Part shown: positions 1,941 through 28,091 of the stretch, piece after piece
Layout: each line of letters begins with the position of its first letter
Position numbering within the stretch: the first letter of the stretch is position 1
Assembly: GCA_900314335.1 (NCBI GenBank)
Contig: OMUV01000083.1
Location: forward strand, 1 to 44,568
Origin: an uncultured Prevotellaceae bacterium
Lineage (GTDB): Bacteria; Bacteroidota; Bacteroidia; Bacteroidales; Bacteroidaceae
Length of the DNA stretch: 44,568 nt
Direction of reading: 5' to 3'
Made by a program: the position numbers and the translations under genes
The notes under the pieces: model-generated
What the model was told of the DNA's origin: nothing
The model's input: the letters and a program-made list of their open reading frames with translations, nothing else
Database searches by the model: none

Positions 1941-1943
1941 GGC

Positions 1944-4251: not shown

Positions 4252-6204
4252 TTACTGTCCCGTGACGCGGCGATAGGTCTTGAGCGCTTCGTCGCGCAGG
4301 GCGGGCGAAAGGGAGTTGTCGCGGCTCATCCGCAGCGTGGTGCGCGCTATGCTGTCCCTGAGGTACGAGCGGCCGTACCATCCTATGGCCTCCGTGAGGG
4401 CTATGCGGCGCGCGTCGTCGTGCGGCTTGGTGATGTAGGAGAGGATGAGCGGTATGCCCGAGGCGGGGCAGTAGAGACGCATGGCCGAGGCCGTGAAGCG
4501 GAAGGACTTGTCCTTAAGAGTGTCGGCCACGAGCTCGCGCACGTCCTTGAGCCAGTAGTCGCCGTACTTCTCCATGCGCTTTACATAGCGGCGGTCGAGG
4601 CTGTCCCTGTTGACCAGCTGCCGCTGGCTCATCACCTTGTCGTAGGCCTTGAGCAGGACATCGCCGGGGAAATATTCGATGCTCATTTCTGCGTCGCTGC
4701 GCACGCGGGCGCTGGTGGCGGCGTCCGTCCAGAGGTCGACCAGCGGCACGGCCAGCTCGGGAGTGCTGTTGTCGCGTATCAGATTGACCGCGAAGCGCTG
4801 CACCATCTCGCAGCGGTCGTAGGCTGCGGTGGCGAGGCCCTTGACGGTGTTGCTGTCGTTCACCTCGGCTATTAATTTCAGGGCCTGCAGGCGGAGCTGA
4901 TCCTCGGGGGCTGTGCGCAGGATATTGAGCAGCTCACTGCTCTTCACCTTGCCAGCCCGATAGCGCGTGAGGAGGCTGAGGGCCTTGCCGTCGCCCGTGG
5001 CGCTCTCGCTGATGCCCTTCTCAGGCGTGAAGGTGAAGGTCGGGTCGCCGATGATGTGGCTCTCGAGGATCTCCTGATAGTTGTTTATCTCGCCCACCGT
5101 GTGGCCGTAGCTCAGCAGGCCGATAAAGCGGTCGTACCATTTGTCCTGGATGAGATTGACCGTGCCGGCCATGCAGGCCACTGTGCTGCCCGGGGAGAAG
5201 ATGTACTCGTTTGCGATGCAGTCGGGCATCTGGAAGGCGCCGTTGTAGCAGGCGTCGAAGATGACGAAGCGCGAATTGGGCGCAAAGCCGTAGGCGGCGA
5301 AGTCCCTGAGGTGGAGGTCGCGCAGGTCGCGGTCGACAGAGTCGGGCACATCCTTGTGCTCGCGGTTGAGATACTGGGTGTCGTAGTCGCCGTGGTGATG
5401 CAGTATGCTGAGGTCGAGGTCAGCGCGCTGCAGGGCGTTCATCAGCGTGGGCTTGATATATTTCTCCTGGTCGAAGTCGACATAGGTGATGGAGGCATGC
5501 GGGTCGCTGCGGAGGTGGGGGAAGTGGTCGTAGAAGCCCGTCTTCTCGTCCATCGCGGCCACGCGGCTGTCGTTGAGGGAGCCCTGACCGGTGAAAAAGA
5601 GGATGCGGTCGAGCCTGTTGGTGCGGCGTTTCTCGCGGACCACCTTGCTGAGGTATGCGCGGAGCTTGGCGTAGCGGCTGGTGCCTCCGGCGTCGGTGGG
5701 GCGGATGCGGCCCGTGTAGATGTCCGGGCGGACGTGCTGGGCGGAGGCTCCCGTGAGCGAGTAGTAGTAGAGCGGCGTGCCCTCGTCGTGGCCCAGAGGG
5801 ACGAAGCGCAGGGAGAAATCGTCGTAGTAGCGGTCGGAGGGAATGCTCGAGTCTTTGCGCGGCATGCTCTGGCTCATCTTGAAGGCCGAGGAGAGGTGCT
5901 GGGCGTCGCGTATCATCGGTACGGGGATGTCGCCCACAAAGACGGCTCCCACGATGTTCCAGTCGCGGCGCGCCCTCTGCAGCATGGCGCGGATGGAGTC
6001 GGGCACGCCCCATTTGTCCTCGATGGTATATACCTTCAGGCCGTTGACGTCGCGGATGGCGCCGGCGTAGGCCTCCACCTCGGCGCGGGCCTCGGAGAGA
6101 CTCTTAGGGTCGATGACTATGACAAATCCTTTTGTCCTGGCCTCAGATGCAAGCGGCGCGCAGAGCAGGAGTGCGAGCAGCAGGGAGAGTGTGATATTCT
6201 TCAT
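4252..6204 (-). CDS. secreted clan-CD (C25/gingipain-like) peptidase-HEAT protein, paralog 2
   Basis: 650-aa ORF with a signal peptide, colinear with 1944-4136 (FVIVIDPKSL..., VFVGDIPVPMIRDAQHLSSAFKM, SDRYYDDF, PDIYTGRIRPTDAGGTSRYAKLRAYLSK are near-identical blocks). The dyad is ILHHHGDYD / VIFDACYNGAF. Confidence 0.65.
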   Translation of the reverse strand: MKNITLSLLLALLLCAPLASEARTKGFVIVIDPKSLSEARAEVEAYAGAIRDVNGLKVYTIEDKWGVPDSIRAMLQRARRDWNIVGAVFVGDIPVPMIRDAQHLSSAFKMSQSMPRKDSSIPSDRYYDDFSLRFVPLGHDEGTPLYYYSLTGASAQHVRPDIYTGRIRPTDAGGTSRYAKLRAYLSKVVREKRRTNRLDRILFFTGQGSLNDSRVAAMDEKTGFYDHFPHLRSDPHASITYVDFDQEKYIKPTLMNALQRADLDLSILHHHGDYDTQYLNREHKDVPDSVDRDLRDLHLRDFAAYGFAPNSRFVIFDACYNGAFQMPDCIANEYIFSPGSTVACMAGTVNLIQDKWYDRFIGLLSYGHTVGEINNYQEILESHIIGDPTFTFTPEKGISESATGDGKALSLLTRYRAGKVKSSELLNILRTAPEDQLRLQALKLIAEVNDSNTVKGLATAAYDRCEMVQRFAVNLIRDNSTPELAVPLVDLWTDAATSARVRSDAEMSIEYFPGDVLLKAYDKVMSQRQLVNRDSLDRRYVKRMEKYGDYWLKDVRELVADTLKDKSFRFTASAMRLYCPASGIPLILSYITKPHDDARRIALTEAIGWYGRSYLRDSIARTTLRMSRDNSLSPALRDEALKTYRRVTGQ

Positions 6205-6210
6205 AAGAGT

Positions 6211-7824
6211 TTAGAGTGTGAGCGATGCGCCTATGTTGATGAGCGTGCGGCAGTCCCCTTCGTAGGCGTTGGAGTATTTATTCGAGTCCTCGCCGCTGTA
6301 GATGCGCCACTGCCCGCCGGCAAAGACTGTGAGCCATGTCGGGGTGGAGTAGAGCCTGAGCGGGATGTCGAGAGCAATGCGGGCGTTCACCGAGGCCGTG
6401 TTGGCTGTGGCGTACTCGAAGGCCGGCGCGGTGTACTGGGAGAGCAGCTTGCCCCTGACGGAGGCGAACGTCGGGTCGCCCACCGAGAAGCGGTAGCCTC
6501 CGCCTGCGGTCGTCGTGAGACGCAGGCGACGCAGGCGCCAGTACTTCGTGCCCTCGGCTGCGAGGTCGATGAGTGTGTATTTCTGCTCCGATGTGCTCTC
6601 CTCAAAGTGCTTCTCATCGCTGTAGTTCAGGCCCACGCCGCCCTGCACTGTCCACGAGGGCAGCGCCTCGGTGTCGAGAGCGTCCAGACGGTAGACGGCC
6701 GAAGCGGCGAGGCGTGTAGATTTGTGCATCTTGTTCTTGCTCAGCACTTCGTAGTAGACACGGTTGCTGTGGTCGGGGTCGGTCATGCGGCGCTGGTAGT
6801 ACCAGTAGCCCTCGTCGCCGTTGTAGGAGCCGCGCAGCGAAACATTGTGACGCAGGCGTCCGCTGCCTCCGATGCTGAGGCGGTCGTACAGCCCCAGAGT
6901 GGTGGCCTTGTAGTCGCCGCCCTTGTAGGTGTAGGCCGAACCGCCGTCGGTAGCCTTCTCGCTGTTGGTGGCGCCGCTCAGCTCCAGCATGTTGCCGATG
7001 GCGTCGCTGAGATCCCACTGCCACTGCAAGCTGCCGCCGAAGCGGAAGCCCTTGTAGTCGCGCGGGTAGTTGAGAGCGTCGTTGGTGGTGAAGTTCTGGC
7101 TGTCGCCCATGCCGCGCATCAGGAAGTAGATGTTGTTGATATAGTTGTTGATCACGACGTGGGTGAGGCTGGAACGGTAGATGTCGAAGTTGAGGCTGGC
7201 GCCCAGGGCGTGGCTGTCGCTGAGGCGGTAGAAGAAGCCCGGGGTGATGATGAAGTGCATCGCGTTGTTTTTAGGCCGCGGGTCCGTCTGGTCGGAGAGC
7301 GAGCCTGTGAGGTAGCGCAGCCTGAGACCGGCCTGCACCCGGTCGCTGAAGCGGTAGGCCGCAGCGGCGTGCAGGTCAAACTGCTCCGTGGTCATGTCGC
7401 TCCTGATCGAGTCGCCGAAAACAAACGGGTTGAGCGGCGTGAGGTAGAGCGTGCTGTTCCAGCGGCGCGAGTAATCCTTGATGTTGGAGTACTTGATATT
7501 TCCCGACAAACTGAAGTTGCCTATCCGTTTGAGTCCGGAAATATCAAGCGAGTAATCGTTTTGCATAGCTCCGCCATCAACGGGATGATAGCCTCCGCGC
7601 TCGTAATGGGCCAGCAGTGTGGCCTGGGCCAGTGTCTGCACCTGATTGAACGACAGCGATACCGGATTGTTCGTCCCGCTCCAGGGATTGGAGAGGAAGT
7701 TGAGAGTCTTGTAGTTCAGACGGTCGCGGCGAGTGGTGTCGCCCTCAATGGTGGCGGCCGTGCTCATCTCTGTCGTGAGCGCGAGCAGCATGACCAGAAA
7801 TATTGTTTTTCTCATTTGCATCAC
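6211..7824 (-). CDS. outer-membrane beta-barrel protein (DUF6850-like by recollection)
   Basis: 537-aa ORF with a signal peptide. It has an alternating hydrophobic and aromatic beta-strand pattern rich in Y/G/S/N/R throughout, and sits after the TBDR-lipoprotein pair. Confidence 0.6.
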   Translation of the reverse strand: MMQMRKTIFLVMLLALTTEMSTAATIEGDTTRRDRLNYKTLNFLSNPWSGTNNPVSLSFNQVQTLAQATLLAHYERGGYHPVDGGAMQNDYSLDISGLKRIGNFSLSGNIKYSNIKDYSRRWNSTLYLTPLNPFVFGDSIRSDMTTEQFDLHAAAAYRFSDRVQAGLRLRYLTGSLSDQTDPRPKNNAMHFIITPGFFYRLSDSHALGASLNFDIYRSSLTHVVINNYINNIYFLMRGMGDSQNFTTNDALNYPRDYKGFRFGGSLQWQWDLSDAIGNMLELSGATNSEKATDGGSAYTYKGGDYKATTLGLYDRLSIGGSGRLRHNVSLRGSYNGDEGYWYYQRRMTDPDHSNRVYYEVLSKNKMHKSTRLAASAVYRLDALDTEALPSWTVQGGVGLNYSDEKHFEESTSEQKYTLIDLAAEGTKYWRLRRLRLTTTAGGGYRFSVGDPTFASVRGKLLSQYTAPAFEYATANTASVNARIALDIPLRLYSTPTWLTVFAGGQWRIYSGEDSNKYSNAYEGDCRTLINIGASLTL

Positions 7825-7861
7825 TGTATCACTGTGTGGTAATTATCGTAGCGTTGTGGAA

Positions 7862-7920
7862 TAAAAAATAAATGCGCGGCGGAGGCTGCGGACAGTGTCT
7901 CCGGCCTGCCGCCGCGCATT
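7862..7920 (-). terminator. strong intrinsic terminator inside the uptake locus
   Basis: A perfect 12-bp GC-rich stem (aatgcgcggcgg at 7871-7882, ccgccgcgcatt at 7909-7920) with extra inner pairing. On the minus strand it is followed by a T-run (tatttttta). It starts 13 nt after the stop of the 7933-9105 gene. Confidence 0.75.
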
Positions 7921-7932
7921 ATGATATGAGTG

Positions 7933-9105
7933 TTAGTTCTCCTTGAGAGGCTGATCGGTGAGGAAGTCCTCGGAGGAGTTGTTGGTGTCCTGATAGTAGG
8001 TGCGGCCGTTTCTTACGACAGTCTTACGACGCTCGCAGAGGCCGCTCCAGGCTGTTGCGGAGATCACGCCGGCTGCATCGTCCCTGCTAAGGAATGTGGG
8101 ATAGTGGGTCGTCTGAGAGCCGTCCCATACGTCCACAGCGTCGAGCACATACTTGGAGGGGATCATGAGGAACTGTATGTTCGATTTGGTGCCGGGCGTG
8201 GTCTGCATGTTGGCAGAGTCGGCTGCGAAGGTAGCGGGATCCATGCCGTCAGGCAGCTTGGCGAGGATGAATGCGCGGCCGAAGAAGCCCAGGGCGAAGC
8301 TGGCCATGAACTTGTTGTTGGTGAACAGCACATCGAGGTTGGGCACATCGGGGTTGTCCACTTCCTGCGAGCTGTAGTCGAGGTAGATCTCCCAGTCGGC
8401 CTTGGAGAGGTCGGGGCTTGAAGCGTTGCCGCTGGCCTCTGCATGATTGACAGCGTTGTTGGCGATGACAATGGTCTGACCCGGCTGGATGGGATGATCC
8501 TTGCCGGTGCCGGGGAATGCGAGTACGGGGCCCTGGCCGGAGCTGTAGAGGTCGTTGACACCCTCAGCCTGCCATTCGTTGGCAGCGCTCTGCCTGCCCT
8601 GCGGCGCGGAGAGGATCAAGCCGTCGAGATACTCGACGCTGTCGCCGTTGTTCACGATCTCAAAATATGTGTCGCGGACATAGCCCTTCTTGCTGCCTGC
8701 ATTGTAGATGGTCTTGAAGATCAGCGGGCTCTGCTTTACGAGGGACACGGGGATGGAGACCGAAGTGGTATCGCTGAATATGTCGGCGCTCTGTATGCCC
8801 GTGGCGAGAGTGTAGGAGGTGATATTGCACTTGAAGCTGAAGCTGTAGGAGCCCTGCGGGAGCCTGAAAGCGTTGACGCCGGCGGTGTCGTAGGTCAGGG
8901 TGTAGGTCTTGCCGAGCGTGTTGTTGACAGCCGTGAGCTGCAGATTCTTGAGGTCGCTCAGGTTGAGCTCGTCGCTCAGGTTGATGCTGACCGTCACGTA
9001 CTTCTGAGCCGGTGTGTCATTGTCATCGGAGCTGCACGCCGAGAAGGCAAAGCCCGCGCTTATGACAAACGCCGAAAGAAGAATTTTGCTGAATGCTTTT
9101 TTCAT
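7933..9105 (-). CDS. surface lipoprotein partnered with the TonB-dependent receptor (DUF4876-like, with a lamin-tail-like C-terminal segment)
   Basis: 390-aa ORF. It has a lipoprotein signal (FAFSAC|SSDDND). YFEIVNNGDSVEYLDGLIL resembles the LTD motif. It lies 30 nt downstream of the TBDR gene. Confidence 0.6.
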   Translation of the reverse strand: MKKAFSKILLSAFVISAGFAFSACSSDDNDTPAQKYVTVSINLSDELNLSDLKNLQLTAVNNTLGKTYTLTYDTAGVNAFRLPQGSYSFSFKCNITSYTLATGIQSADIFSDTTSVSIPVSLVKQSPLIFKTIYNAGSKKGYVRDTYFEIVNNGDSVEYLDGLILSAPQGRQSAANEWQAEGVNDLYSSGQGPVLAFPGTGKDHPIQPGQTIVIANNAVNHAEASGNASSPDLSKADWEIYLDYSSQEVDNPDVPNLDVLFTNNKFMASFALGFFGRAFILAKLPDGMDPATFAADSANMQTTPGTKSNIQFLMIPSKYVLDAVDVWDGSQTTHYPTFLSRDDAAGVISATAWSGLCERRKTVVRNGRTYYQDTNNSSEDFLTDQPLKEN

Positions 9106-9135
9106 TGCTTTTGGTTTTGTTGGTTTATATTGAGT

Positions 9136-11961
9136 TTAGAATTTCAGTTTGAGCTCCGCGCCGAAGTAGGGATCGGGGTAGAGCTGCTGCATGAACATCG
9201 TGTTGTGATTGGTGTGATATTTCTTGACGCCTAGGAAGTTGTTGGCCATAAAGGATACCTCGGCTATGTTGCCCAGCTCCTTGGTCAGGCGGAAGTTGAA
9301 CAGCACCCAGGGCGAGATGTGGTCGCTCTTGAAGCTGTAGAGGAAGTAGCGGTCGTTCATGAGCATATACTTGCCCGTGCTCTCGTAGCTGGCCTGCCAT
9401 TCGTTCCAGTTGCCCTGGCGGTCGTAGAAGCCCAGCGGCGAGACGATATACTCCGAGCCGTCGGCGGAGAGGTGATAGAGCTTGTGGCCCTTGTTGTCCT
9501 CGTAGATGGAGCGTGTGTTCTCGTACCATACCACCTGCATCGTGGTCGTAAAGACGAGTTTTACGGCGGGGATGTGCGTGATAAACCGGAAGTTCGAGTT
9601 GACCCTGTCGCTCACTGTGCCGCCGCCGGCGGGCATCATGGGGATGTAGTCGTATTGGTAGCTGATGTAGCTCAGGTTGTCCACGTCGGTCTTGCGGCGT
9701 ATGTGAAACCACGCGCCGTCCACCACCAGAGATGTGCTGAGGGGCTTGAATGTGCCGAAGTCGAGCGAGTACTCGATGCCGTGCTTGTCCGTGCGCGATG
9801 TGTTGCCCGGCTGCGCCCAGAGCTGCATCTCGTTGCCGGGCGTCGTGGAGGCCGCCACGGTGGCGCCGTCGAGGGTGTAGCTCACGCCCTTGCCCTCGGT
9901 GTACATCAGCTGGCTCGCGCCGGCCGGTATCTGGTAGCGATTGTAGGAGAGCAGGATGAAATGGGAGTTGAAGCCGAACTCGTCGCGGTGGCGCTCCATG
10001 AAGAAGTTGACATAGCCCTTAAACTGCCGGATGCGCGCGTTGAGACCCACCTCCCACTTCAGGCTGCGGGCGGGCTTGAGGTCGGGATTGAACGTCTTGT
10101 CCACCACCTGGGTTGTCATGGCCGCCACGCGCGAACCGTCGCTGGCTATGGCGCTGACGCTCACATTGTCGAAGTAGGCCTTGTCGGGATAGAGGTAGAG
10201 CAGGGTGGGCATCTTGTTCGAGATGCCGAAGCCGCCGCTGATGCTCAGTTTGTCGAAGACGCTGTTGTTCTTCCTGGTGAGGAATGTGTATTCGGCGTTC
10301 ACCCTCGGCTCGGCCACGAAAATGTTGCTCTTGCCCGATTTGTCCTTGTCGAGGAACAGGTTGCTGAGCCTCACGCCGGCATCGTACTGGAGCACCGTGG
10401 CGCCGAAATCAAACGTCGAGACGTCGCTGAGGAAGGCCGAGAGATTGTGCAGCGCGGGAATGTCCTTGAAGGCGCGGGGTCTGTAGCTCTGCGCCTCGCC
10501 GGCCTTGGGCGGGCGCGAGAGGTCGAACGTCAGGCCGTCGCCGCGGTTGTCGTCCATGCGATACTCCAGGCCGCCCTTCACGTTGGTGAAGCTCTTGCCG
10601 CGGAGGCGGATGTATTTGTTGGCCTTCAGCTGCGCATACACATTTATGGGTATGCCCTCCATGCGATAGTCGCTGTAGTACGACTTGTCGGCTATGAGCG
10701 CCGCATGCTCGCCCGTGGTCATGGCGTTGGAGATGACGCCGTCGGGGCTCGCGATGAGGTCGTGATGGGTGTCGAGCTGCCGGGAGGCCTGAGCCGAGAT
10801 GTCATAGTCCAGGCCCGTGAGCCACGAGTCTATCTGCGCGTGACCGTGCACGGCGAGGCGCCCGCCGATGTTCTTGTTCTTGTAGGTCAGGTCGAGCTCA
10901 GACATCTGCGGGTCGTGCTTATAGTTGTTGATATTGCTGTAGAATGAGCCGTTGACATTGAACGTGACCGGTTTGCCGCCGAACATATTAAAGAGCGTCG
11001 AATAGCCCACCGTGCCGGTGACGCGGTCGTAGCCGCGGTAGTGGCGCCTCGTGTCGGCCCACGACTGCGACCAGTCGAATCCCACATTCATCGTTCCCTT
11101 GCCCAGGCCGAAGCCTTTGCCCACGTAGGCCAGTTTGGAGAACGGGTCGGCCTTGAGCTTGGCCTCCAGCGGGCTCTTGCCCGACTTGGTCTTGACCACC
11201 ACGACGCCGGAGGTCAGGTTGCCGTACTCCACCGACGGTATGCCCCTGATCACCTCTACGCTCTCGATGTTGTCGGCCGAGATGGTGCGCAGGTCCGTGC
11301 CGCGTCCGGCGGTGGTCTGGTCGCTCATGCCGTCGGCGCTGGTGCTCGAGGCTTTGCCGGTGCGCGTGGGGGCGATGGCCTGCAGGTTGGCGTCGTTGCT
11401 TATAGGGGTGCCGTCGAGCACGATGGCCGTGCCGAGGGCGTTATTGTCATTACCGTCGATCTCGCGGATGTTGGCCTGTGCCAGATTGTTGAGCGTAGGA
11501 TTGACCGTCAGGGCTCCGGGCATGAGCTGCAGCATGTCCGCCAGGCTCTTGGGCTGGATGTGGCGCACGGCGTCCTGATCGATGATCGACTTGGAGCCCA
11601 TGGCCTGCTGGCGCGCCGTCACGGTGACAGTGCTGAGGCTCAGGTCGAGGTGGGTGAGGCGTATGTTCAGGCGGTCGCGCCCGTCGCCCTTGACAGTGAC
11701 CTTGCCGCGCGCCTCCTTGTAGCCGAGGCACGAGGCGTAGTAGTCCAGTTCGCCCGTCGGCACGCCCGTGATCTTGAAGTTGCCCTTCTCGTCGCTCAGT
11801 GTGTAGAGCGAGCCGTTGAGCACCACGTTGGCCACCTCTACGGGATGACCTTTGTCGTCGGTCACTGTGCCGCTCAGCGTGACGCCGCCCTTAATCTGGG
11901 CCAGCGCTGCGGTGGCGCACATGATGAGAAGGAGAGTTGCCAGCATTCTCCTGCATCCCAT
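9136..11961 (-). CDS. TonB-dependent outer-membrane receptor with a CarboxypepD_reg-like N-domain
   Basis: It has a signal peptide (MGCRRMLATLLLIMCATAALAQ), a carboxypeptidase-regulatory-like domain (GTVTDDKGHPVEVANVVL...GNFKITGVPTG), a plug domain (IESVEVIRGIPSVEYGNLTSGVVVV), a long barrel and a terminal ...AELKLKF. The ORF-track start at 12057 was rejected because the -7 box at 12065-12072 leaves no room for it, and the signal peptide begins at 11961. Confidence 0.9.
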   Translation of the reverse strand: MGCRRMLATLLLIMCATAALAQIKGGVTLSGTVTDDKGHPVEVANVVLNGSLYTLSDEKGNFKITGVPTGELDYYASCLGYKEARGKVTVKGDGRDRLNIRLTHLDLSLSTVTVTARQQAMGSKSIIDQDAVRHIQPKSLADMLQLMPGALTVNPTLNNLAQANIREIDGNDNNALGTAIVLDGTPISNDANLQAIAPTRTGKASSTSADGMSDQTTAGRGTDLRTISADNIESVEVIRGIPSVEYGNLTSGVVVVKTKSGKSPLEAKLKADPFSKLAYVGKGFGLGKGTMNVGFDWSQSWADTRRHYRGYDRVTGTVGYSTLFNMFGGKPVTFNVNGSFYSNINNYKHDPQMSELDLTYKNKNIGGRLAVHGHAQIDSWLTGLDYDISAQASRQLDTHHDLIASPDGVISNAMTTGEHAALIADKSYYSDYRMEGIPINVYAQLKANKYIRLRGKSFTNVKGGLEYRMDDNRGDGLTFDLSRPPKAGEAQSYRPRAFKDIPALHNLSAFLSDVSTFDFGATVLQYDAGVRLSNLFLDKDKSGKSNIFVAEPRVNAEYTFLTRKNNSVFDKLSISGGFGISNKMPTLLYLYPDKAYFDNVSVSAIASDGSRVAAMTTQVVDKTFNPDLKPARSLKWEVGLNARIRQFKGYVNFFMERHRDEFGFNSHFILLSYNRYQIPAGASQLMYTEGKGVSYTLDGATVAASTTPGNEMQLWAQPGNTSRTDKHGIEYSLDFGTFKPLSTSLVVDGAWFHIRRKTDVDNLSYISYQYDYIPMMPAGGGTVSDRVNSNFRFITHIPAVKLVFTTTMQVVWYENTRSIYEDNKGHKLYHLSADGSEYIVSPLGFYDRQGNWNEWQASYESTGKYMLMNDRYFLYSFKSDHISPWVLFNFRLTKELGNIAEVSFMANNFLGVKKYHTNHNTMFMQQLYPDPYFGAELKLKF

Positions 11962-12064
11962 TATGGCGGGAATTATGGTCCTGATGTTGCTAAATCCGTG
12001 TGATGGAGTTATGTAGTTCTTGCTTCCTTCTGTAGATGTTGCTGCCATAACATTCATTTTGATG

Positions 12065-12072
12065 CAAAATTA
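12065..12072 (-). promoter_or_regulatory. Bacteroidota -7 promoter box (TAatTTTG) for the TBDR operon
   Basis: The minus strand reads TAATTTTG, matching the TAnnTTTG consensus, about 100 nt upstream of the 11961 start. Confidence 0.5.
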
Positions 12073-12093
12073 ATGATTCCGCACCGAATAGCC

Positions 12094-12160
12094 ATCACAA
12101 TTAATAGGTAAATGCCCCGAAACAGCAAAAAATGGTGTTTTTGCAGTCTTTAATTGTGAT
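12094..12160. repeat. 11-bp perfect inverted repeat (atcacaattaa / ttaattgtgat) flanking 45 bp
   Basis: Arms at 12094-12104 and 12150-12160, read directly from the sequence. It lies just upstream of the TBDR promoter box. Confidence 0.7.
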
Positions 12161-12321
12161 TAATGCGTGTTTTTGAAGATAAAATAAGCCTTTTTCCTGC
12201 AATAGTCTTTTCTGAGGCCCGCTGAGCCGGACAGAATGATGTGGAGAAGTGGGTAGGGAGTGGTGATGAGCCGCGTGAGGACGGCTGAGAGGGGAATAAG
12301 GCAACGCCCGCCGCGCCTGAA

Positions 12322-12433
12322 CGAGAGGCGCAGCGGCTATATGACAGGCCGGCCGGGCGTGCGCGAGAGGCGCAGCGGCTTTATTACAGCCCGGCGGAGT
12401 GAGAGGAAGATGTGTAGCGGCTATATTACTGGC
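12322..12433 (+). repeat. three imperfect tandem repeats, 42-bp period (cgagaggcgcagcggctWtatKacaggc)
   Basis: Units start at about 12322, 12364 and 12406. The periodicity also shows as 14-aa repeats (ERRSGYMTG.../ERRSGFITA.../KMCSGYITG...) in the spurious ORF 12260..12520. Confidence 0.75.
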
Positions 12434-12468
12434 TATTGCTGTCCGGTATATTTTTTGAGAATGGAAAT

Positions 12469-12512
12469 ACAATTCAGGCTGAAGTACCCGCCCGGACTCC
12501 AGCCTGAATTGT
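12469..12512 (-). terminator. hairpin terminator downstream of the GH3 gene
   Basis: A perfect 13-bp stem (acaattcaggctg / cagcctgaattgt) with an 18-nt loop, 49 nt after the GH3 stop. The trailing U-tract is weak. Confidence 0.55.
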
Positions 12513-12560
12513 TACGATAGTCTGTTCCTAAGAACTATCTAAACTATTTCTTTCGCGGCG

Positions 12561-15404
12561 CTATTTGCCGGGGTTGGCCTCGGAGATGACGGCGCGGCCG
12601 GCCGTTATCAGCACGCGCAGGTCGCTGGCCTGCTGGGCTTTGAAGCCATAGGAGTGCATCTCGTTGTCCGCATTCACGCCTCCCTTACAGACGGTGAGAA
12701 ACTGTCCGCCGCCATTGCTCAGCTGCACCTCAAAGGCGGCGTCGGTCGACTTTTCCTTGAAGGCGATGCTTACCCTATTGAGCGTGGTGTTCTCCCCGAT
12801 GCGGAAGTTCAGATTGTCCCCCTTCTCGCCCGTCCATCCCGTGGAGCGGTTGCCGTCCGTTACCGCGGGCACGGCGGCGCCATTGTCGTCGGTGGCCTGA
12901 AGGGCGGAGGCTTTGCGAGCCGCGGGCTTCTCACCCGGGACGAGCACCGCGAACACGTCGTTGAGGCGGATATCTACCGAGGAACTGCCGATCATCACCT
13001 TGAATTCCCCGGGCTCTACCACACGTTTGTACTCCTGATTGACCAGCTCCAGGTCGCGCGGACGAAGAGTGAAGCTCACCTCCTTGCTCTCGCCCGGCTC
13101 GAGGTGGACGCGCTCGAAGCCGCGGAGATTCTTCTCGTAGGTGGTCACGGAGCTCACCATGTCGCGCGTGTAGAGCTGCACGATCTCGTCGCCCGCGCGG
13201 CTGCCGCTGTTGCTGACCTTGCAGGTGACCGTGAGGCTGTCGCCGGCGTGGATGTAAGGGCTCGAGAGGCGGATGTCCGAGTATTCGAAGGTGGTGTAGC
13301 TCAGCCCGTAGCCGAAGGAATAGAGTGCGCCGTTGACACGCGTCATGTTGCCCTTCATGCCGGGCGTGTGGCCGCCGTCGACCTGCGAGTAGGGCTTGGC
13401 GGGGAAGTTGAACGGTATCTGGCCCACCGACTTGGGGAATGTAACGGTCAGTTTGCCGCTCGGGTTGCAGTCACCGCTGAGCACCTCGGCCACGGCCGTG
13501 CCGCCGTGAGGGCCGGGATACCAGGCTTCGACGATGGCGGGGACAAAGCGGTCGGCCCAGTTGATGGACAGCGGGCGGCCGTTGATGAGCACGAGCACTA
13601 CGGGTTTGCCGGTGGCGCTGACGGCCTTCAGCAGGTCCAGCTGCCGCCCGGGCAGGTCGAGGCTGGAGCGCGACTTGTTCTCGCCGCAGGTGCGCTGTCC
13701 CCCGCCGAGCACCACCACGGCCACGTCGCTCTTACTCGCCTCGCTGACGGCTGCGTCGATGTCGCGCTGCTCGGTCTCGGAGAGCGGATAGTCGATGATC
13801 TCCGACTCGGGCCAGTGCTCGTCCACCAGGTCACAGCCCTTGGCATAATGCACGTCGACGCCGTGCTCCGCAGCCTTGGCCCGGATGCCTTCCAGTACGG
13901 TCGTCACGTCTACGGCCAGCGGCCCGTAATGTGTGAGCGCGTAGTCCCTGGCATCGGCGTTGGGGCCGAGAACTGCGATGCTGTGTATCTTCCTCAGGTC
14001 GAGCGGCAGGAGGTGGTTCTGATTCTTGAGCAGCACGATGCTCTCGCGCGAGGCGCGCAGCGACACCTCGTTATTCTCGCGGCTGTTGACCTCGACGTCG
14101 GCCTGCCTCAGGTCCGTGCGGTAGGGATGGTCAAACTGCCCGTCGATAAACTTGACGCGCAGCACATCCCGCACCCTCTCGTTGAGCGTGGCGGTGCTGA
14201 TCCTGCCCTCCCTGACCAGTTCCCTCAGCGGCAGGACGTACGAGTCGGGCGAGCGGAAGGTGCAGCGCACATTGAGCCCGGCCTCCACGCTCTGACGGAT
14301 GGCGTCCCTCATGTCGGGGGCGGTGGAGTGCTTGGTGAGAAGATATTCCACCGCCTCGCTGTCGGACACTACATAGCCGCGGAAGCCGAAGTCCTTGCGC
14401 AGGCGGTCCCACAGCCAGTAGTGGCTGCCCTCGATGGGCACGCCGTCGTAATCGTTGTAGGCGCACATCACACCCAGCAGCCCCGCCTCCGGTATCACAC
14501 GGCGGTAGGGATAGACGTGGATGTTCTCCACCTCGCGCCGCGACATCTGCGGGTCGTCGCGGGCCATGCCCTCGCGCGCGCCCTTGTTGTTGCTGTAGGC
14601 CAGAAAGTGCTTGGCCGTGGCGGCCACCTGATGATTGTGCTGTATGCCGCGCACCATCTGCACGCCGAGCTCGGCCACGAGATAGGGGCTCTCGCCGTAG
14701 ATCTCCTCATAGCGGCCCCAGCGCTGGTCGCGCCCCACATCGAGCACGGGCGCATAGACATTGGTGTAGCCCAGCAGGTGAGCCTCGCGGCCGGTGATGA
14801 GCCCCACGTGATATATCAGGTCTCTGTCCCAGGTGTGCCCCAGTCCGAGCTGCGTGGGAAAGTCGGTGGCCTTGTAGCTCTCCACGCCGCGGATGCCCTC
14901 GTTGGTGAAGTCGACCGGTATGCCGAGCCTCGTGTCCTCCACGAAGAACCGCTGCACCTCATTGAGCGCCCAGGCGTGGCGCGAAGCCGGCCACACGTAC
15001 GGGTTGTTCGACGGCGGCAGGCCCCACTGCCGGAAGCCGTTCAGGTGCTCGTCGATGGCGCCCATGCCGTCCTTCCAGATCTTGTTTTTCCACTCCGGCG
15101 TGGGCAGGGCGTCGCTCAGGATGCGCCCGTAGCCGTAGAGGGTGACCAGCTGGCAGGTTTTCTCCTCCACGGTCATCTGCGAGAGCAGATCCTCGATGCG
15201 GTCGTTGATGGGCGCGGAAGGGTCTTCGTAGACATCCTTGCGCCCGTTCTTGTTGAAGTCTGTCCAGCCTTTGTGGTAGATCTGATTCTTGGGAGGCGTG
15301 TAGCGCACAAGCGCTTTGCCGGTGGGCACAGAGTCCTGCGCAAAGGCGGTCACGGCGAGGGCCGAAGCTGCGAGCAGGCCCATGAGATATTTTGAGAATG
15401 ACAT
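12561..15404 (-). CDS. glycoside hydrolase family 3 beta-glycosidase (BglX-like) with a C-terminal discoidin/CBM32-like domain
   Basis: 947-aa ORF with a signal peptide. GH3 blocks are present: KHFLAYSN, GVMCAYNDYDG and GYVVSDSEAV (nucleophile Asp context). A GH3 C-domain and Fn3-like region follow, then TDGNRSTGWTGEKGDNLNFRIG... Confidence 0.9.
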   Translation of the reverse strand: MSFSKYLMGLLAASALAVTAFAQDSVPTGKALVRYTPPKNQIYHKGWTDFNKNGRKDVYEDPSAPINDRIEDLLSQMTVEEKTCQLVTLYGYGRILSDALPTPEWKNKIWKDGMGAIDEHLNGFRQWGLPPSNNPYVWPASRHAWALNEVQRFFVEDTRLGIPVDFTNEGIRGVESYKATDFPTQLGLGHTWDRDLIYHVGLITGREAHLLGYTNVYAPVLDVGRDQRWGRYEEIYGESPYLVAELGVQMVRGIQHNHQVAATAKHFLAYSNNKGAREGMARDDPQMSRREVENIHVYPYRRVIPEAGLLGVMCAYNDYDGVPIEGSHYWLWDRLRKDFGFRGYVVSDSEAVEYLLTKHSTAPDMRDAIRQSVEAGLNVRCTFRSPDSYVLPLRELVREGRISTATLNERVRDVLRVKFIDGQFDHPYRTDLRQADVEVNSRENNEVSLRASRESIVLLKNQNHLLPLDLRKIHSIAVLGPNADARDYALTHYGPLAVDVTTVLEGIRAKAAEHGVDVHYAKGCDLVDEHWPESEIIDYPLSETEQRDIDAAVSEASKSDVAVVVLGGGQRTCGENKSRSSLDLPGRQLDLLKAVSATGKPVVLVLINGRPLSINWADRFVPAIVEAWYPGPHGGTAVAEVLSGDCNPSGKLTVTFPKSVGQIPFNFPAKPYSQVDGGHTPGMKGNMTRVNGALYSFGYGLSYTTFEYSDIRLSSPYIHAGDSLTVTCKVSNSGSRAGDEIVQLYTRDMVSSVTTYEKNLRGFERVHLEPGESKEVSFTLRPRDLELVNQEYKRVVEPGEFKVMIGSSSVDIRLNDVFAVLVPGEKPAARKASALQATDDNGAAVPAVTDGNRSTGWTGEKGDNLNFRIGENTTLNRVSIAFKEKSTDAAFEVQLSNGGGQFLTVCKGGVNADNEMHSYGFKAQQASDLRVLITAGRAVISEANPGK

Positions 15405-15510
15405 CCTGCGGTGTTATTTGGGTGTGGTTATTTAAGATAAATCGCGGCAGCATCGGAGCTCCCGGCGCATCGGATCAGCGCGTCCGGAAATGCTGCCCCA
15501 GAATTAATTA

Positions 15511-15530
15511 TTGCTCTCAGAGCAAAGTTA
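15511..15530 (-). promoter_or_regulatory. -7 box (TAacTTTG, 15523-15530) overlapped by a 15-bp perfect palindrome (ttgctctcagagcaa, 15511-15525), upstream of GH3
   Basis: Read directly from the sequence. It lies about 120 nt upstream of the GH3 ATG (15404). Confidence 0.45.
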
Positions 15531-15666
15531 CGATTAATATTCCGAACCGCCACTCCGGCCTCCGGCTAATCTGACTAAGGGGCGGGAATCGCGGGACTGA
15601 TTCTGAGAAAATCCGCCTCGGTACCGGGCGTTCTGGATAGCATTATACATGCCTGCGGAAGGGCTC

Positions 15667-16221
15667 AAAATCGCCTTTGTAAGTGTGTGAAAATCAGCGC
15701 TCCAGGAAGGCCAAAATTATGTTTGAGATAATTTAAAACGTCTCAAATGTAGTTTTCCTCATCTCAAATGTAATTTTGTGGTTTTGCGGAAGTTTTTTTG
15801 AGAAGTGGGAAATGCTTCTCAAAAAATGCGGACGAAGCGAACGTGTTTCGCATGGCGAATATAAATAGGCGGAGCAGATGAGTGAGGACTTCAAAAATAT
15901 GGATCTTAATCTATAATGCGCGAAGCTGGCTGGGAGGGCCGCCGCCTCAGCGGCCGCCAGCCGCCGCGAAAGCAAATGCGAGGCGCACGCGCTATACTAA
16001 CTTTTCGCCGCCAGGCCGCTCATTAGATTTCCCAGGCTCGCTCCCAGCCGCTGCGGGTAGCGGCCCTCCCAGTTATTTCCCGCTCACAACACTCCTTTTC
16101 AACAATGTGATTTTCAGCCCCTGCGATAGGGGCAAATTCTACTGCGAGATAAAATATTTTAGCTACGAGTTAACGAGTCGTCTACTACGAGATAAATTTT
16201 TTTATCTGCGAGTAGAATTTC
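15667..16221 (+). repeat. full-length copy (E1) of the modular ORF-free intergenic repeat family
   Basis: It shares head, palindrome, hairpin, GC-stem and R1-tail modules with 33384-33900, 43995-44568, 23224-23665 (inverted) and 1-78. No ORF is conserved between copies. Confidence 0.85.
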
Positions 16222-16292
16222 TTCTTCTCCTGATTGGCTTTTCGCCGGGGCGGGAAGCTTTCCCCGGAAGCGCAGACAGCAGTGCCTGCGGG

Positions 16293-20147: not shown

Positions 20148-20225
20148 TCTCTTGTATTACTGTCGAATTCTCTGTATTACTGCTTCGCCTTCCTGATTTA
20201 CTACTCAGCTCTCTTGTATTACTGC
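20148..20225 (-). repeat. four copies of a 'cagtaatacaRgaga'-like box (mRNA sense) in the purine-rich mreC-mreD spacer
   Basis: Plus-strand copies are tctcttgtattactg (20148), tctctgtattactg (20169), cctgatttactac (20192, degenerate) and tctcttgtattactg (20211). Spacing is about 21 nt. Confidence 0.65.
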
Positions 20226-22382: not shown

Positions 22383-22982
22383 TTATTTGCTCACGGCAAA
22401 GTATGTGTGGATAGCTGTGTCATAGTGGCTGCTCACGGCAAATGCGCGCTCGGCAAAGTGGCGACGGTCCTCGATGTCGGTAGCGGCGCCCTTGGTGTGG
22501 AGCAGATTGAGCAGCTCGGCGTACTGGGCCTTGGAGGGGATGATCACCACGTCCTTGAAGTTCTTGGCGCCGGCTCTTATCAGCGAGATGCCGCCGATGT
22601 CGATCTTCTCGATGATGTCGGCCTCCGATGCGCCGCTCTTCACCGTCTCCTCAAAGGGGTAGAGGTCTACTATTACGAGGTCTATGGACGGGATCTCGTA
22701 CTTCTGCATCTCGGCCTGGTCGCCCTCATTGTCCCTGCGGGCCAGTATGCCGCCGAAGATGCGGGGGTGCAGAGTCTTTACCCTGCCGCCCAGAATGGAC
22801 GGATAGGTAGTGAGCTCCTCAACCTTCTTGCAGGGATAACCCAGACCCTCTATGAATTTCTGTGTGCCGCCGGTGGAGAGCAGCTCCACGCCGTCGGCAT
22901 TCAGCGCCTTGAGGATGTCCTCCAGACCGTCCTTGTGATAGACGGATATCAGCGCTGTCTTGATAGGTTTTCTTTCTGACAT
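22383..22982 (-). CDS. purH: IMP cyclohydrolase (MGS-like) domain of PurH only; the AICAR transformylase domain is absent
   Basis: The 199-aa ORF is colinear with the N-terminal PurH/ATIC domain (ALISVYHKDGL..., LSTGGT, GGRVKTLHP, VDLYPF, IDIGGISLIRAGAKN). It stops right after ...SSHYDTAIHTYF, and mreB starts 40 nt later. Confidence 0.85.
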   Translation of the reverse strand: MSERKPIKTALISVYHKDGLEDILKALNADGVELLSTGGTQKFIEGLGYPCKKVEELTTYPSILGGRVKTLHPRIFGGILARRDNEGDQAEMQKYEIPSIDLVIVDLYPFEETVKSGASEADIIEKIDIGGISLIRAGAKNFKDVVIIPSKAQYAELLNLLHTKGAATDIEDRRHFAERAFAVSSHYDTAIHTYFAVSK

Positions 22983-23043: not shown

Positions 23044-23223
23044 CTAATTTTTTATATATCCCCTCTTTCTGCCGGACAAAATCACCAAAAGTAAGGCGTT
23101 ATGTCTCTCCGCGGCCATCTCCGCATGCCTGAGGGCGGGAGTATAATGGGGAAATTCTGCGTCCTCCTGTACTGCCACACCATCCGCATGCAATTAATAC
23201 AAGAAGGCATGTAGTTCATGCGC

Positions 23224-23377
23224 GACAGCTGCGATGCATATTCATGACAGCTGCGATTCATTTGCATGACAGCTGCGATTCATTTGCATGACAACTGCGA
23301 TTCATTCGCGTGACAGCTGCGATGCATTCGCATGACAGCTGCGATGCATTCGCGTGACAGCTGCGATGCATGAAATA
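23224..23377 (+). repeat. contiguous tandem array, 7 x 22 bp (gacagctgcgatKcatttgcRt), CAGCTG-centred
   Basis: Units start at 23224, 23246, 23268, 23290, 23312, 23334 and 23356 (the last is degenerate). There are no spacers between units. Units 2 and 3 are identical. Confidence 0.95.
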
Positions 23378-23665
23378 GAAGGGACATAAAATCAGGCATT
23401 GCCGAATTATGAAATGTGTCGTCATGGAATGAGGATGAATTTTCCTCTCCGGGCGCACGCCGGAATGCATGTAAGAAGAATGATTCGCTGTGCGCAGAGC
23501 GCCCTTTGCGCGTACCGCAAAAACCGTCCCGCATGCTGTGATGCTCACATAGGACCTGAGGAAAACTACATTTGAGGTAGTTCTACTCGTCTCAAATGTA
23601 GTTTTGGCCTGTGTGAAGCGCTGATTTTGAGTTATTTGGAAAGGGCCGAAAAACCGGTTTTCCGC
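23224..23665 (-). repeat. inverted copy (A) of the array-bearing variant of the intergenic repeat family
   Basis: The reverse complement aligns with 33905-34270. The core (ggccaaaactacatttgagacgagtagaactacctcaaatgtagttttcctcaggtcctatgtgagcatc.cagca.gcgggacggtttttgc) is nearly identical, and the shared atgcctgattttatgtcc precedes the 22-bp array. Confidence 0.9.
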
Positions 23666-26065: not shown

Positions 26066-26176
26066 CCGCGCCGCGCTATATTATTCAGCAGGCCGTGTGT
26101 CGCGGAAAACGGAGCGCGGATGAGTCGTTAGCACGCTGGTAATACACGCGCAGAAAATCCTACCATTTATCAGAAA

Positions 26177-26237
26177 CCTCACAAAGCACCTGATTTAAAA
26201 CCACACAGATGTGATTTAAGCCAGATGCCTTGTGAGG
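26177..26237. terminator. long imperfect hairpin between the convergent thioesterase and GH operon ends
   Basis: 23-nt arms at 26177-26199 and 26215-26237 with a 15-nt loop. Three of the four mismatches become G-U pairs in a minus-strand transcript. Confidence 0.45.
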
Positions 26238-26411
26238 ATGCCCTTATCGGGGAATTAATTATCAGATAGTTAGAGAGGGGTCGGAATGCGGCTTTCCCGA
26301 GGACCGGAATGCCCGCTTTGCGGCCGCTTTCCAATGGTCGTATTCCCTTCGTTCAGGGGCGGTAATCGTGTGTTGCGAATGCTCTGCGCGTTGTGCGGGG
26401 GCGGCGCTTGT

Positions 26412-28091
26412 TCAGCGCTGTGCGAGGGAGAGCGCTACCTTGCCGTTCTTCGCGGTGACGGTCCACAGCGCGGCGCTGTCGGAGCTGCCGGGCATGGCGA
26501 GGCTGCCGGTGCCGACGCGCATGGTGTAGCGGAAGCCGTTGAAGGACTGCTGCAATGTCTTGGCGTCGTGGCTTACGACTTCGGGCAGTTTTGCCCCCTG
26601 GCTGACGGTGAGCTCGAGGCGGTAGTCGTTATCCTTGTCCGACTCTACCGTGATGCCCTTCTCGCCGAGCTCCACCCGATACTTCCTGCCGCTGCCGTCA
26701 AAGCTCACAATCATCCGTCCGGCCTTCATGCTGCCGGCGGTGGTCACGGTGGGCCTGGAGCATTTTATCTCCTTGTATTCTCCTCCCGAAGCGTCGCGGC
26801 TCATTATCCTGAGGCCTGCACGGAAGTTGCCCTTGCTCCAGAGGCAACCGTCCACGAGCGGCAGGGCGTAGTAATGGCATTCGGTCGATGTGCCGGGCTG
26901 GTCGTAGTAGAGCGATTTGAAATGCTCGTTGTAGAGCTGTATGTCGCGGAAGAGGAAGCGCTCGCCCTGCCAGAACAGGCTGGTGCGGTAGTAGCGTGTG
27001 CTGTACCATACGGTGCGGCCGCCCTGAGGCGTGTAGTCGCTCATGGCGGTGGAGGCTGTGGCTGGGGTGATCTTGTAGCGGCTGCGGAACTCGCGGCCCG
27101 TCTCCTCAAGGGTGAGCACGCGCATCTCGCCGCTCCGGGCCAGTGCGGCCAATTTGGGCATCTGCATCTCGAATCCACGGCGCATGCTTGCCCATGTGAA
27201 CGAGTTCTCCTGCCCGGCCTGGACATAGACAAAGCCGAGAGCGGGGTCACGGCTCACCGTGCCCAGATACCAGTCGGTCCAACGCTCGCTGCCGCCACCC
27301 TCTCCGTATACGGGCTCGAGGGTCGAGACGCTCTGTGTAGCGCCGCCCACACCGCAGTAGTACTGGTAGAGCGGGTCGCTGCCCAGCATGCGGAAGACGG
27401 GCACATTGATCTGCGCGCTCTTATTCTGCGCCGGCAGGTAGGCGTTGAGCAGCGAGGGGTAGTAGCCGCCCTGCCAGTAGCCGCCCCACATGGTGTAGCC
27501 GTCGGTACCCACCTGGTCGCGGCAGTTGCACGAGGCCGTGATGTGATATTTGTCGGCCATGTAGCGGAGCGTCACGGCGTCGATAAACCAGCTGCCCACC
27601 GAGGCGGGATAGCGGCCGAAGATGCGTTTGAACTCCGCCATGTAGACATCCACCAATTTGAGGCGCTCGGCGGGCGTGTAGCCCGTGGCGAAACCGACGT
27701 TGGCGTGCCAGTCCCACGGATAGCGGCCCCGCCAGTTCATGCCGGCGGCCTTGACGTGCGGTTCGGTGATCTCCCACCAGCCGCCCACCTCGAAGCCGTC
27801 GCTTATGGCCTGGCGCATGAGGGCCTGGTAGCGGGGATTGATGAGTGCGTCGTACTGCAGAAGGAATGTGCCCTTTAGGCCGTTGCGCTTCATGCTCTCG
27901 TACTGGGCTTCGGTGGTGCGGTAGAGCACATCGTCGGTCACCGCTTCGCTCCGGGGCTCTGTAAGCCGGACAAAGTTGACAATGTTGATTACGCGGTCGG
28001 GCTGCATGGCGACCCTCACCGCGGCCGGAGCCGCGAGGGTGAGCGCCGTCATTGCTGCCGCAAGGCCGAGCCTTAATATCTCTCTTTTCAT
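26412..28091 (-). CDS. secreted protein of unknown family, last gene of the rhamnosidase operon (possible uncharacterised carbohydrate-active enzyme)
   Basis: 559-aa ORF with a signal peptide and coding-like composition. It starts 15 nt after the GH106-like gene. I recognised no family signature. The N-terminal ~330 aa look like an alpha/beta barrel-type domain rich in W/Y/G, and the C-terminal ~200 aa are beta-rich. Confidence 0.7.
   Translation of the reverse strand: MKREILRLGLAAAMTALTLAAPAAVRVAMQPDRVINIVNFVRLTEPRSEAVTDDVLYRTTEAQYESMKRNGLKGTFLLQYDALINPRYQALMRQAISDGFEVGGWWEITEPHVKAAGMNWRGRYPWDWHANVGFATGYTPAERLKLVDVYMAEFKRIFGRYPASVGSWFIDAVTLRYMADKYHITASCNCRDQVGTDGYTMWGGYWQGGYYPSLLNAYLPAQNKSAQINVPVFRMLGSDPLYQYYCGVGGATQSVSTLEPVYGEGGGSERWTDWYLGTVSRDPALGFVYVQAGQENSFTWASMRRGFEMQMPKLAALARSGEMRVLTLEETGREFRSRYKITPATASTAMSDYTPQGGRTVWYSTRYYRTSLFWQGERFLFRDIQLYNEHFKSLYYDQPGTSTECHYYALPLVDGCLWSKGNFRAGLRIMSRDASGGEYKEIKCSRPTVTTAGSMKAGRMIVSFDGSGRKYRVELGEKGITVESDKDNDYRLELTVSQGAKLPEVVSHDAKTLQQSFNGFRYTMRVGTGSLAMPGSSDSAALWTVTAKNGKVALSLAQR

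Follow-up and report, generated by a model that had tools for sequence, protein, structure and literature searches.

The 44,568-nucleotide stretch of DNA analyzed here (contig OMUV01000083.1 of assembly GCA_900314335.1 from an uncultured Prevotellaceae bacterium; hereafter the window) harbors, between its genes, whole and partial copies of a modular repeat element, among them a full-length copy located between rodA and a gene of glycoside hydrolase family 3 (GH3). With a probability of roughly 60%, these copies represent a lineage-specific, high-copy, non-coding family of mosaic intergenic repeats, i.e., the kind of element exemplified by the bacterial interspersed mosaic elements (BIMEs), the Neisseria intergenic mosaic elements (NIMEs), BOX and BrickBuilt. 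The family has a mosaic anatomy, is abundant, lies between genes irrespective of their orientation, and breakpoints distinguishing strains are located inside its copies. Elements of this kind are known, whereas this family, its set of modules and its promoter-box palindrome appear to be undescribed in the literature searched and without a match among Rfam, phage and plasmid records.

Within the window, a repeat search linked direct copies at 15674-15906, 33386-33618, 33915-34039, 44002-44234 and 44297-44529, as well as an inverted copy at 23204-23652 aligning with 33948-34286. The head palindrome of the element, described by the pattern TAYRTTTGAGA-N13-CTCAAATGTRRTTT, was matched exactly six times in the window and not once in 100 shuffled sequences. 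The repeat search and the comparison with shuffled sequences confirmed the seven whole or partial copies that an initial annotation had proposed at essentially these coordinates. Likewise, its description of a modular repeat family devoid of open reading frames (ORFs) holds, since no stop-free reading frame is kept across 75 copies, and the element is accordingly not protein-coding. All copies in the window lie between genes, as called by Pfam matches and third-position GC content (GC3). The further statement that nearly every long spacer is filled was too broad: copies were found in four of the six internal spacers of at least 300 bp, those at 12058-12560 and 26066-26411 being free of them. 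The individual copies, designated E0 to E5b, and their parts are as follows; P, Hm, M4, GC, T, Hs and R22 denote modules recognized by sequence profiles.

1-95, plus strand: E0, consisting of the tail palindrome (R1) only and cut by the window edge; the tail profile matches 1-95, and 1-87 is 94% identical to 16144-16230 in the repeat search.
15667-16236, plus strand: E1, a full-length copy in the rodA-GH3 spacer, with head motif, palindrome, Hm, GC-rich pair, second head-like motif and tail; profile modules Hs 15673-15716, P 15713-15777, Hm 15780-15886, GC 15927-15974 and T 16093-16236.
15713-15777, plus strand: P module of E1, in which TAtgTTTGAG (plus strand, 15718-15727) faces two TAcaTTTGAG boxes (minus strand, 15742-15751 and 15763-15772) at 21-bp spacing.
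15797-15823, plus strand: hairpin tttgagaag-N9-cttctcaaa within Hm of E1, a stem confined to one subfamily and not family-wide.
15930-16072, no strand assigned: GC-rich module of E1 with the inverted arms CTGGGAGGGCC and GGCCCTCCCAG, resembling repetitive extragenic palindromes (REPs) and REPINs.
16093-16236, plus strand: second head-like motif of E1 (ccttttcaacaatgtgattttcagcc), together with a small GC hairpin and the tail; the latter forms an extended, imperfect palindrome built from ~22-bp units (tctactRcgagataaa).
23198-23665, minus strand: E3, an inverted copy in the spacer between a GH30 gene and purH, with head motif, palindrome, M4 and a 22-bp tandem array; profile modules P 23547-23605, M4 23375-23553 and R22 23216-23375.
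23220-23371, minus strand: 22-bp minisatellite of E3, 6.7 units (GACAGCTGCGATGCATTCGCAT), with a strain-variable copy number.
33384-33900, plus strand: E4a, in which head motif and palindrome precede a degenerate Hm; a GC-rich module comes next, its inverted arms lying at 33645-33655 and 33796-33806, and ccgctcaca stands behind it.
33905-34273, plus strand: E4b, with head motif, palindrome, M4 and a 22-bp array (34185-34267, 3.8 units).
43995-44290, plus strand: E5a, comprising head motif, palindrome and Hm in a single 295-bp unit that has E5b as its tandem neighbor.
44291-44568, plus strand: E5b, with head motif, palindrome and Hm, passing the window edge.

The 22-bp tandem array ending E3 and E4b had not been listed as a module in the initial annotation. 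The hairpin tttgagaag-N9/10-cttctcaaa had been assigned to E1, E4a and E4b; it is present in E1, absent from E4a and E4b, and found instead in E5a (44125-44152) and E5b (44420-44447). Similarly, the near-identity of about 97% claimed for E4a and E4b applies to their 125-nt heads only (96%), after which the two copies consist of different modules, E4b sharing its subtype with E3, to which it is 87% complementary over 189 nt. In E1, the P module folds as a 16-18-bp hairpin (z = -4.7 on the plus strand and -6.3 on the minus strand), and the GC-rich module holds a small hairpin GGCCGCcgcctcaGCGGCC in its left arm, the right arm being degenerate. Both copies truncated by the window edges could be followed in other strains. 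Past the edge, E5b extends through a GC arm and a second head-like motif into the tail (metagenome locus L003, 8830-9385), and the full E0 copy (L009, 10440-10990) is placed between an HmuY-like gene and a NusG/UpxY-like gene heading a capsule locus. The gene content of this capsule biosynthesis locus (L009-L014, 11250-20387, left of the window) is strain-variable.

Profile searches and alignments revealed a module order that is fixed and polar across loci. The element begins with the head motif CCTTTGYAA-N7-TGAAAATCA, the final 9-mer of which is found also as its own reverse complement, and a small GC hairpin often stands between this motif and palindrome P, which measures 45-65 bp and comprises two or three facing TAnnTTTGAG boxes at 21-bp spacing. 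The middle module following P is either Hm or M4. Thereafter, an optional GC-rich module may occur, with the arms CTGGGAGGGCC and GGCCCTCCCAG each carrying a hairpin GGCCGCTG-N3-4-CAGCGGCC; it is succeeded by the second head-like motif and the tail, again a long imperfect palindrome of ~22-bp units. The trailer is composed of 21-22-bp units (TTCTCGTCCCACGAGAATTTTT), the place of which is taken after M4 by a 22-bp GACAGCTG array, and the 22-bp units of the arrays follow each other head to tail without spacers. Tandem units such as E4a-E4b and E5a-E5b are common. Among 83 oriented spacers, the head motif CCTTTGYAA was counted 32 times in forward and once in reverse direction; the GC arms occur in both orientations across the family (33 vs. 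26). The GC-rich module, with hairpins of the form GGCCGCTG-ccct-CAGCGGCC in inverted pairs, is the only part of the element showing the short, GC-rich, imperfect palindromes that define REP, BIME and REPIN sequences, and in one strain variant (L003) its inverted arms are perfect over 27 bp and 86 bp apart.

The family is not confined to the window. An exact scan of public metagenome contigs for the palindrome pattern detected at least 120 stretches in three metagenomes, with 3-7 matches on each of several long contigs. The window itself is unusually dense, with six exact palindromes in 44.6 kb compared to 44 or more in long contigs totalling 1.88 Mb, the latter value being a lower bound tallied from the loci listed. 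In a scan of species-representative genomes, the palindrome was found in at least two further bins, one labelled Muribaculaceae, the locus of which also contains the tail module, and one labelled RUG846, so that the family is represented in at least three genome bins. When the 1.2 Mb collected was searched with profiles, the metagenome loci showed 313 palindromes, 92 tails, 85 GC arms and 33 22-bp arrays, and the two middle modules were found 87 and 50 times.

The host of the window is a member of the Bacteroidales with a GC content of ~60%, and its RodA protein is 61-64% identical to proteins of named Phocaeicola species and of Bacteroidaceae metagenome-assembled genomes. This uncultured species appears to be abundant in public assemblies, one of its proteins being listed in 254 collection blocks; assembly labels suggest rumen or gut surveys. 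In four relatives (67-82% RodA identity), no module of the family was detected in ~80 kb, and the spacers around the same operon are short, which indicates that the family is lineage-restricted and patchily distributed. One of these relatives (L138, 67% RodA identity) encodes a group II intron reverse transcriptase (RVT_1 and GIIM domains) at 14987-16256; many split genes in this locus suggest an error-prone long-read assembly.

Placement relative to genes was evaluated on deduplicated spacers. Copies were present in 85 of 120 spacers of at least 500 bp, but in only two of 166 spacers shorter than 300 bp. The spacers containing copies comprise 58 co-directional, 25 convergent and 17 divergent ones, convergent spacers being mildly enriched. 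In co-directional spacers, the element runs along the genes in 29 cases and against them in 19; the orientation noted initially for the window, with six of seven copies on the plus strand opposite to minus-strand operons, is thus a local accident. Counting both sides, the head points toward a gene start 35 times and toward a gene end 48 times. The arrays of the window stand off from the downstream start codon by 170-320 bp of unique sequence, and 35-105 bp follow the upstream stop codon. This unique DNA holds the gene's own TAacTTTG box in two cases (gcaaagttacg upstream of GH3 and of ThiF). Since no rule of position or orientation relative to genes emerged, the family does not serve as promoter or terminator of its neighbors; it occupies dispensable mid-spacer DNA, where insertions harm least, as do REP-like repeats. 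The orientation of the element was also compared with GC skew as a proxy for replication direction, and no association was obtained; in these loci, the skew tracks gene strand and is therefore uninformative in this respect.

Strains of the host species with flanks of 99-100% identity differ inside the modules. In L008, exactly one 295-bp unit of the E5a/E5b tandem is missing, and in both L003 and L008 stretches inside E4a have been replaced by divergent blocks, the flanks being identical; the same patchy block differences distinguish L021 from L083. An apparent inversion of the spacer between L108 and L120 was dismissed, the two loci being one region in opposite orientations. The 22-bp array of E3 is shorter by one unit in L147 and by five in L145. 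Strain-level breakpoints inside copies furthermore include three synteny breaks and those of a deletion between two direct copies. In L007, synteny is lost exactly at the end of the E5b tail, and in L144 TsaD and CinA genes take the place of GH30 left of E3, homology starting within the 22-bp array. In L133 (Joint Genome Institute) and L151 (a different study of the European Nucleotide Archive), a junction connects rodA and the tail directly with the E0 interior and the UpxY-like gene, and the ~16.1 kb between the direct copies E0 and E1 (window 95-16144) are missing. The switch from E0-type to E1-type sequence takes place at different points within the shared tail in these two loci, which argues for real, recurrent recombination between direct copies and against an assembly chimera. 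Because a relative with 82% RodA identity retains the genes encoding the TonB-dependent receptor, DUF4876, DUF6850 and C25 proteins downstream of rodA, the arrangement of the window is probably ancestral.

Two adjacent paralogous C25-like peptidase/HEAT-repeat genes (window 1944-4136 and 4252-6204), sharing DNA blocks of 76-83% identity, both lie within the 16.1-kb segment deleted in L133 and L151. Moreover, L070 (1150-2303) and L046 (5785-6662) have flanks of 99.7% identity and differ by a 276-bp AT-rich insertion with the inverted repeats GGAGTGATAGAGATTT and AAATCTATCACTCC. This indel resembles a classical MITE (a transposable element of the miniature inverted-repeat type) of another family, adjoining copies of the family studied here.

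The palindrome constitutes the most conserved part of the element. In an alignment of 75 non-redundant units, the invariant columns of its 5' arm read T-A-n-n-T-T-T-G-A-G-A. Of 123 copies detected by profile in metagenome loci, 107 fit the exact pattern; in the 16 others, which were not selected by it, the 5' arm is still 100% conserved, and deviations occur in the other arm. Every TAnnTTTGAG 10-mer of the 44.6-kb window is located within a copy. TAnnTTTG is the -7 consensus of sigma-ABfr, the primary sigma factor of Bacteroidota (PMC7366714), and this box is present at sequence level in all 75 and all 16 copies. Furthermore, a run of five to seven T residues is situated exactly 68 nt downstream of the box in 75 of 75 units. 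The hairpin preceding this run is stable in only ~40% of the units, with a mean folding energy of -4.4 kcal/mol compared to -3.3 in shuffled sequences. A conserved intrinsic terminator following the palindrome was rejected on this account, the T-run being kept but not a stable hairpin; a simple terminator scan did not flag the tail either.

Conservation of the core far above that of the surrounding modules suggests that selection or biased conversion acts on it, and promoter activity would be its obvious candidate function. For BrickBuilt, promoter elements with a capability for bidirectional transcription were reported (PMC4596501). The proposal of a portable regulatory cassette made in the initial annotation is supported at the level of sequence only, by the -7 box at the core; relative to neighboring genes, the copies follow no rule of position or orientation.

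Comparisons with known classes of elements yielded mostly negative results. No Rfam family was matched at the gathering score in the whole window, and searches in E-value mode returned only chance matches to microRNA-type hairpins (E = 0.006 to 0.67). BLAST against phage and plasmid collections retrieved no similar sequence, and none of head, tail and GC arm was matched when viral contigs were scanned; the absence of an Rfam counterpart suspected initially was borne out. Covariation is absent in 75 copies evaluated over 25 hand-specified pairs: 90.5% of the cells are paired compared to 90.2% in column shuffles, a value as high as the observed one arose in 45 of 500 shuffles, and the covariation score amounts to 0.143 vs. 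0.136 in shuffles. RNAalifold predicts the palindrome only for the 75 non-redundant units. An excess of G.U over A.C mismatches was considered as a sign of RNA, two pairs showing 17 vs. 2-3; over the whole stem, G.T (69) and A.C (70) mismatches are balanced, favoring neither strand, and shuffled columns pair equally well. The structured RNA family suggested at the outset is not supported by these data.

The family is small, non-coding, multi-copy and intergenic, as MITEs are, yet the reading as a classical MITE is not supported. Terminal inverted repeats (TIRs) are absent, given the polarity of CCTTTGYAA (32:1) and a right end (..gagtagaatttcttcttc) that is not its complement; the same polarity rules out the head motif as a BrickBuilt-style terminal repeat related to insertion sequence IS5. 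No empty or filled site was seen, i.e., presence or absence of a whole element was not encountered in the strain sets L003-L014 and L139-L154, where every difference is a unit loss, a block swap or a rearrangement at a copy and fuzzy array boundaries preclude the calling of target duplications. Clustering of the 554 complete ORFs flanking copies disclosed no multi-copy or transposase-like protein. Finally, a CRISPR array was discarded, the 22-bp units lacking spacers and the flanking genes scanned containing no cas-type domain.

Under the interpretation as a mosaic intergenic repeat family, changes in the arrays and rearrangements would arise by homologous recombination, namely by gene conversion and by exchange of the unequal or ectopic type. 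The family would persist mainly as tolerated or selfish DNA that is homogenized and reshuffled by recombination. In view of the -7 box and the T-run at 68 nt, short transcripts would probably start from its units and run in a single direction or in both, either as a side effect or to the units' own benefit. Several points weigh against this interpretation. The creation of a copy at a new locus was not observed, so that the selfish, recombination-spread character is inferred, and a mobilizing enzyme may possibly be encoded once elsewhere in the genome, the ORF search having covered the flanks of copies. The better conservation of the palindrome relative to adjacent modules and the fixed 68-nt spacing indicate a selected function, unlike pure junk DNA. 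Conservation estimates are biased by the retrieval of loci through exact palindrome matches. The -33 TTTG partner of the box is mostly absent, TTTG-N17-21-TAnnTTTG being found six times forward and seven times reverse in 85 kb of element-bearing spacers; the -33 motif was likewise not found in Flavobacterium (PMC7366714). Moreover, genes in the loci were called by a GC3 heuristic, which reproduced the genes of the window and possibly performs more poorly in loci of lower GC content.

Some other readings are not mutually exclusive with a mosaic repeat family, namely a mobile element, small RNA (sRNA) units and binding arrays. It is conceivable, if rather unlikely, that the family is a non-autonomous element without TIRs, moved in trans by a single-copy enzyme that recognizes the end hairpins as single-stranded DNA in the manner of IS200/IS605 or of REP/REPIN sequences and their RAYT transposases. 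Its polarity, the lack of inverted termini and of an obvious target duplication, one large hairpin near each end, GC-rich hairpins in inverted pairs as in REPINs, the high copy number, the strictly intergenic placement with mild enrichment in convergent spacers and the patchy occurrence among related species would all be in agreement with such movement. However, ~30 strain comparisons exposed no filled/empty site, and homologous recombination explains every polymorphism; no transposase-like multi-copy ORF lies near copies, and modules occurring alone and in many combinations fit poorly with a unit cut at two defined ends. Somewhat less credit is given to small autonomous transcription units, i.e., multi-copy sRNA genes or host promoter-terminator cassettes laid out like FopS and GibS, in which the plus-strand box would give rise to an RNA of ~65-70 nt ending at the T-run. 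FopS provides a precedent for multi-copy sRNAs with canonical promoters in Bacteroidales (PMC11697453), the TAnnTTTG box is invariant with its T-run at constant distance in all 75 units, ~40% of copies have a stable GC-rich hairpin immediately ahead of the T-run, and orientation independent of neighbors suits free-standing genes. Against this stand the missing Rfam match, even though FopS was deposited in Rfam according to its authors (PMC11697453), the lack of covariation and of a wobble-pair strand asymmetry, a terminator hairpin that is weak or absent in most copies, a copy number far above that of known sRNA families, and the location of head motif, GC pair, tail and arrays outside the putative RNA.

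A role as binding-site arrays for a DNA-binding protein or several of them (e.g., nucleoid-associated or regulatory), with short palindromic cores phased at 21-22 bp, corresponding to two helical turns, and A/T tracts between them, is regarded as improbable. A 21-22-bp period with short palindromic cores (CTCAAATGTA, GACAGCTGTC, TCTCGTCCCACGAGA and ATCTGCGAGAT) recurs in every module, conservation resides in sequence and not in base pairing, and the TGA-W4-TCA motif appears in either orientation within a fixed context; but slippage of a 21-22-bp unit alone also yields periodic arrays, and neither a candidate protein nor a known motif nor a positional relation to genes was found. Hardly credible is the assumption that the GC-rich module represents an invertible promoter switch (inverton). 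Segments of ~85-140 bp are indeed enclosed by inverted arms (11 to 27 bp long), and one copy is located upstream of the UpxY-led capsule locus, the classic setting of Bacteroides invertons. The corresponding segments of the window and of L003 nevertheless differ in sequence (109 identities in reverse-complement vs. 107 in forward alignment), no recombinase gene is encoded in the window, and arms also occur singly, e.g., in E5b and E0. Inversion between the GC-rich arms was accordingly rejected as a cause of strain differences, the variants being different sequences and not reverse complements.

In a more far-reaching scenario, the units might be self-contained transcription modules riding on a repeat that spreads without inverted termini, the palindrome acting as a bidirectional sigma-ABfr promoter from which a plus-strand RNA of ~65-70 nt would extend to the T-run and a minus-strand transcript would read outward. 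Dozens of small RNAs and outward promoters could then rewire the expression of glycan-degradation and capsule loci, and the recurrent deletions would be driven by the same repeat. This scenario is speculative and ranks with movement in trans in being rather unlikely.

The mosaic repeat family marks positions at which strains of the host species differ. The recurrent 16-kb loss removes a cluster comprising the HmuY-like, C25-like peptidase, TonB-dependent receptor and GH3 genes, and puts the capsule locus directly behind the cell-shape operon. The family is also likely to break or confuse short-read assembly and binning of host genomes. Furthermore, the combination of a perfect promoter box with a T-run at constant spacing offers a concrete test case for repeat-borne promoters and small RNAs in Bacteroidota.

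Further observations in the window concern sequences other than the family. The 503-bp spacer between the TonB-dependent receptor and GH3 genes, which is without family modules, contains a 42-bp tandem repeat of three units (GCCCGCCGCGCCTGAACGAGAGGCGCAGCGGCTATATGACAG; 12306-12431), and an ORF overlapping this repeat (12101-12472) has no Pfam match. The short mreD-mreC spacer holds 3.7 units of a 21-bp tandem repeat (63% matches; 20148-20223), which is unrelated in sequence to the family. The purH-like gene at 22383-22982 encodes only 199 amino acids, which span an MGS domain and the beginning of the AICARFT domain; since a form of equal length stands upstream of mreB in the relatives L136 and L137, it is a conserved short form and not a pseudogene. 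Finally, a gene at 26412-28091 encoding 559 amino acids, inside a glycoside hydrolase cluster, shows a strong coding signal (GC3 0.84) and belongs to no Pfam family.

In the literature searched, interspersed repeats of the mosaic type have been covered well for Proteobacteria, Neisseria and pneumococci, whereas descriptions from Bacteroidales are scarce. BIME, REP and REPIN sequences of Proteobacteria are likewise intergenic mosaics of short palindromic units, and the GC-rich hairpin GGCCGCTG-N3-4-CAGCGGCC in inverted pairs resembles a REPIN doublet. Unlike in BIMEs and REPs, GC hairpins form just one optional module of the present element, most of which is AT-richer and arranged in a fixed polar order. 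NIMEs with their dRS3 sequences, Correia elements and BOX are associated with rearrangements and consist of varying repeat blocks in arrays, with a short conserved motif between the blocks; Correia elements possess promoter-like sequences, terminal inverted repeats and a TA target duplication, and the pneumococcal BOX follows an A-B(n)-C layout with a variable number of middle units. These families belong to other phyla and share no sequence relation with the family described here, in which TIRs are absent and no TA duplication of the Correia type is obvious.

Within Bacteroides, the multi-copy sRNAs FopS and GibS consist of a canonical sigma-ABfr box, a short segment and a hairpin or T-run (PMC11697453), and the repeat units resemble them in this multi-copy layout of promoter box, short segment and hairpin or T-run. 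They differ from FopS by the lack of an Rfam match and of covariation, by large extra modules in each unit and by a far higher abundance than the 12-15 FopS copies per genome (PMC11697453). BrickBuilt of Porphyromonas gingivalis (Klein et al. 2015, PMC4596501) is the sole Bacteroidales family found in the literature searched and, like the present one, always intergenic. Based on its TIR sequences and its description, which were used for the comparison in place of the whole element, BrickBuilt shares the modularity of leader, internal ~22-23-nt minisatellite of variable copy number and tail, as well as many partial copies. It differs in possessing IS5-like TIRs (GAGACCTTTGCA and TGCAAAGGTCTC); the CCTTTGYAA motif of the present family looks similar, yet is one-directional (32:1) and without an inverted partner. 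BrickBuilt occurs in 19 copies per genome in P. gingivalis and P. gulae only, whereas the family described here reaches tens to hundreds of copies and, unlike BrickBuilt, combines several types of minisatellites with GC-rich hairpin pairs.

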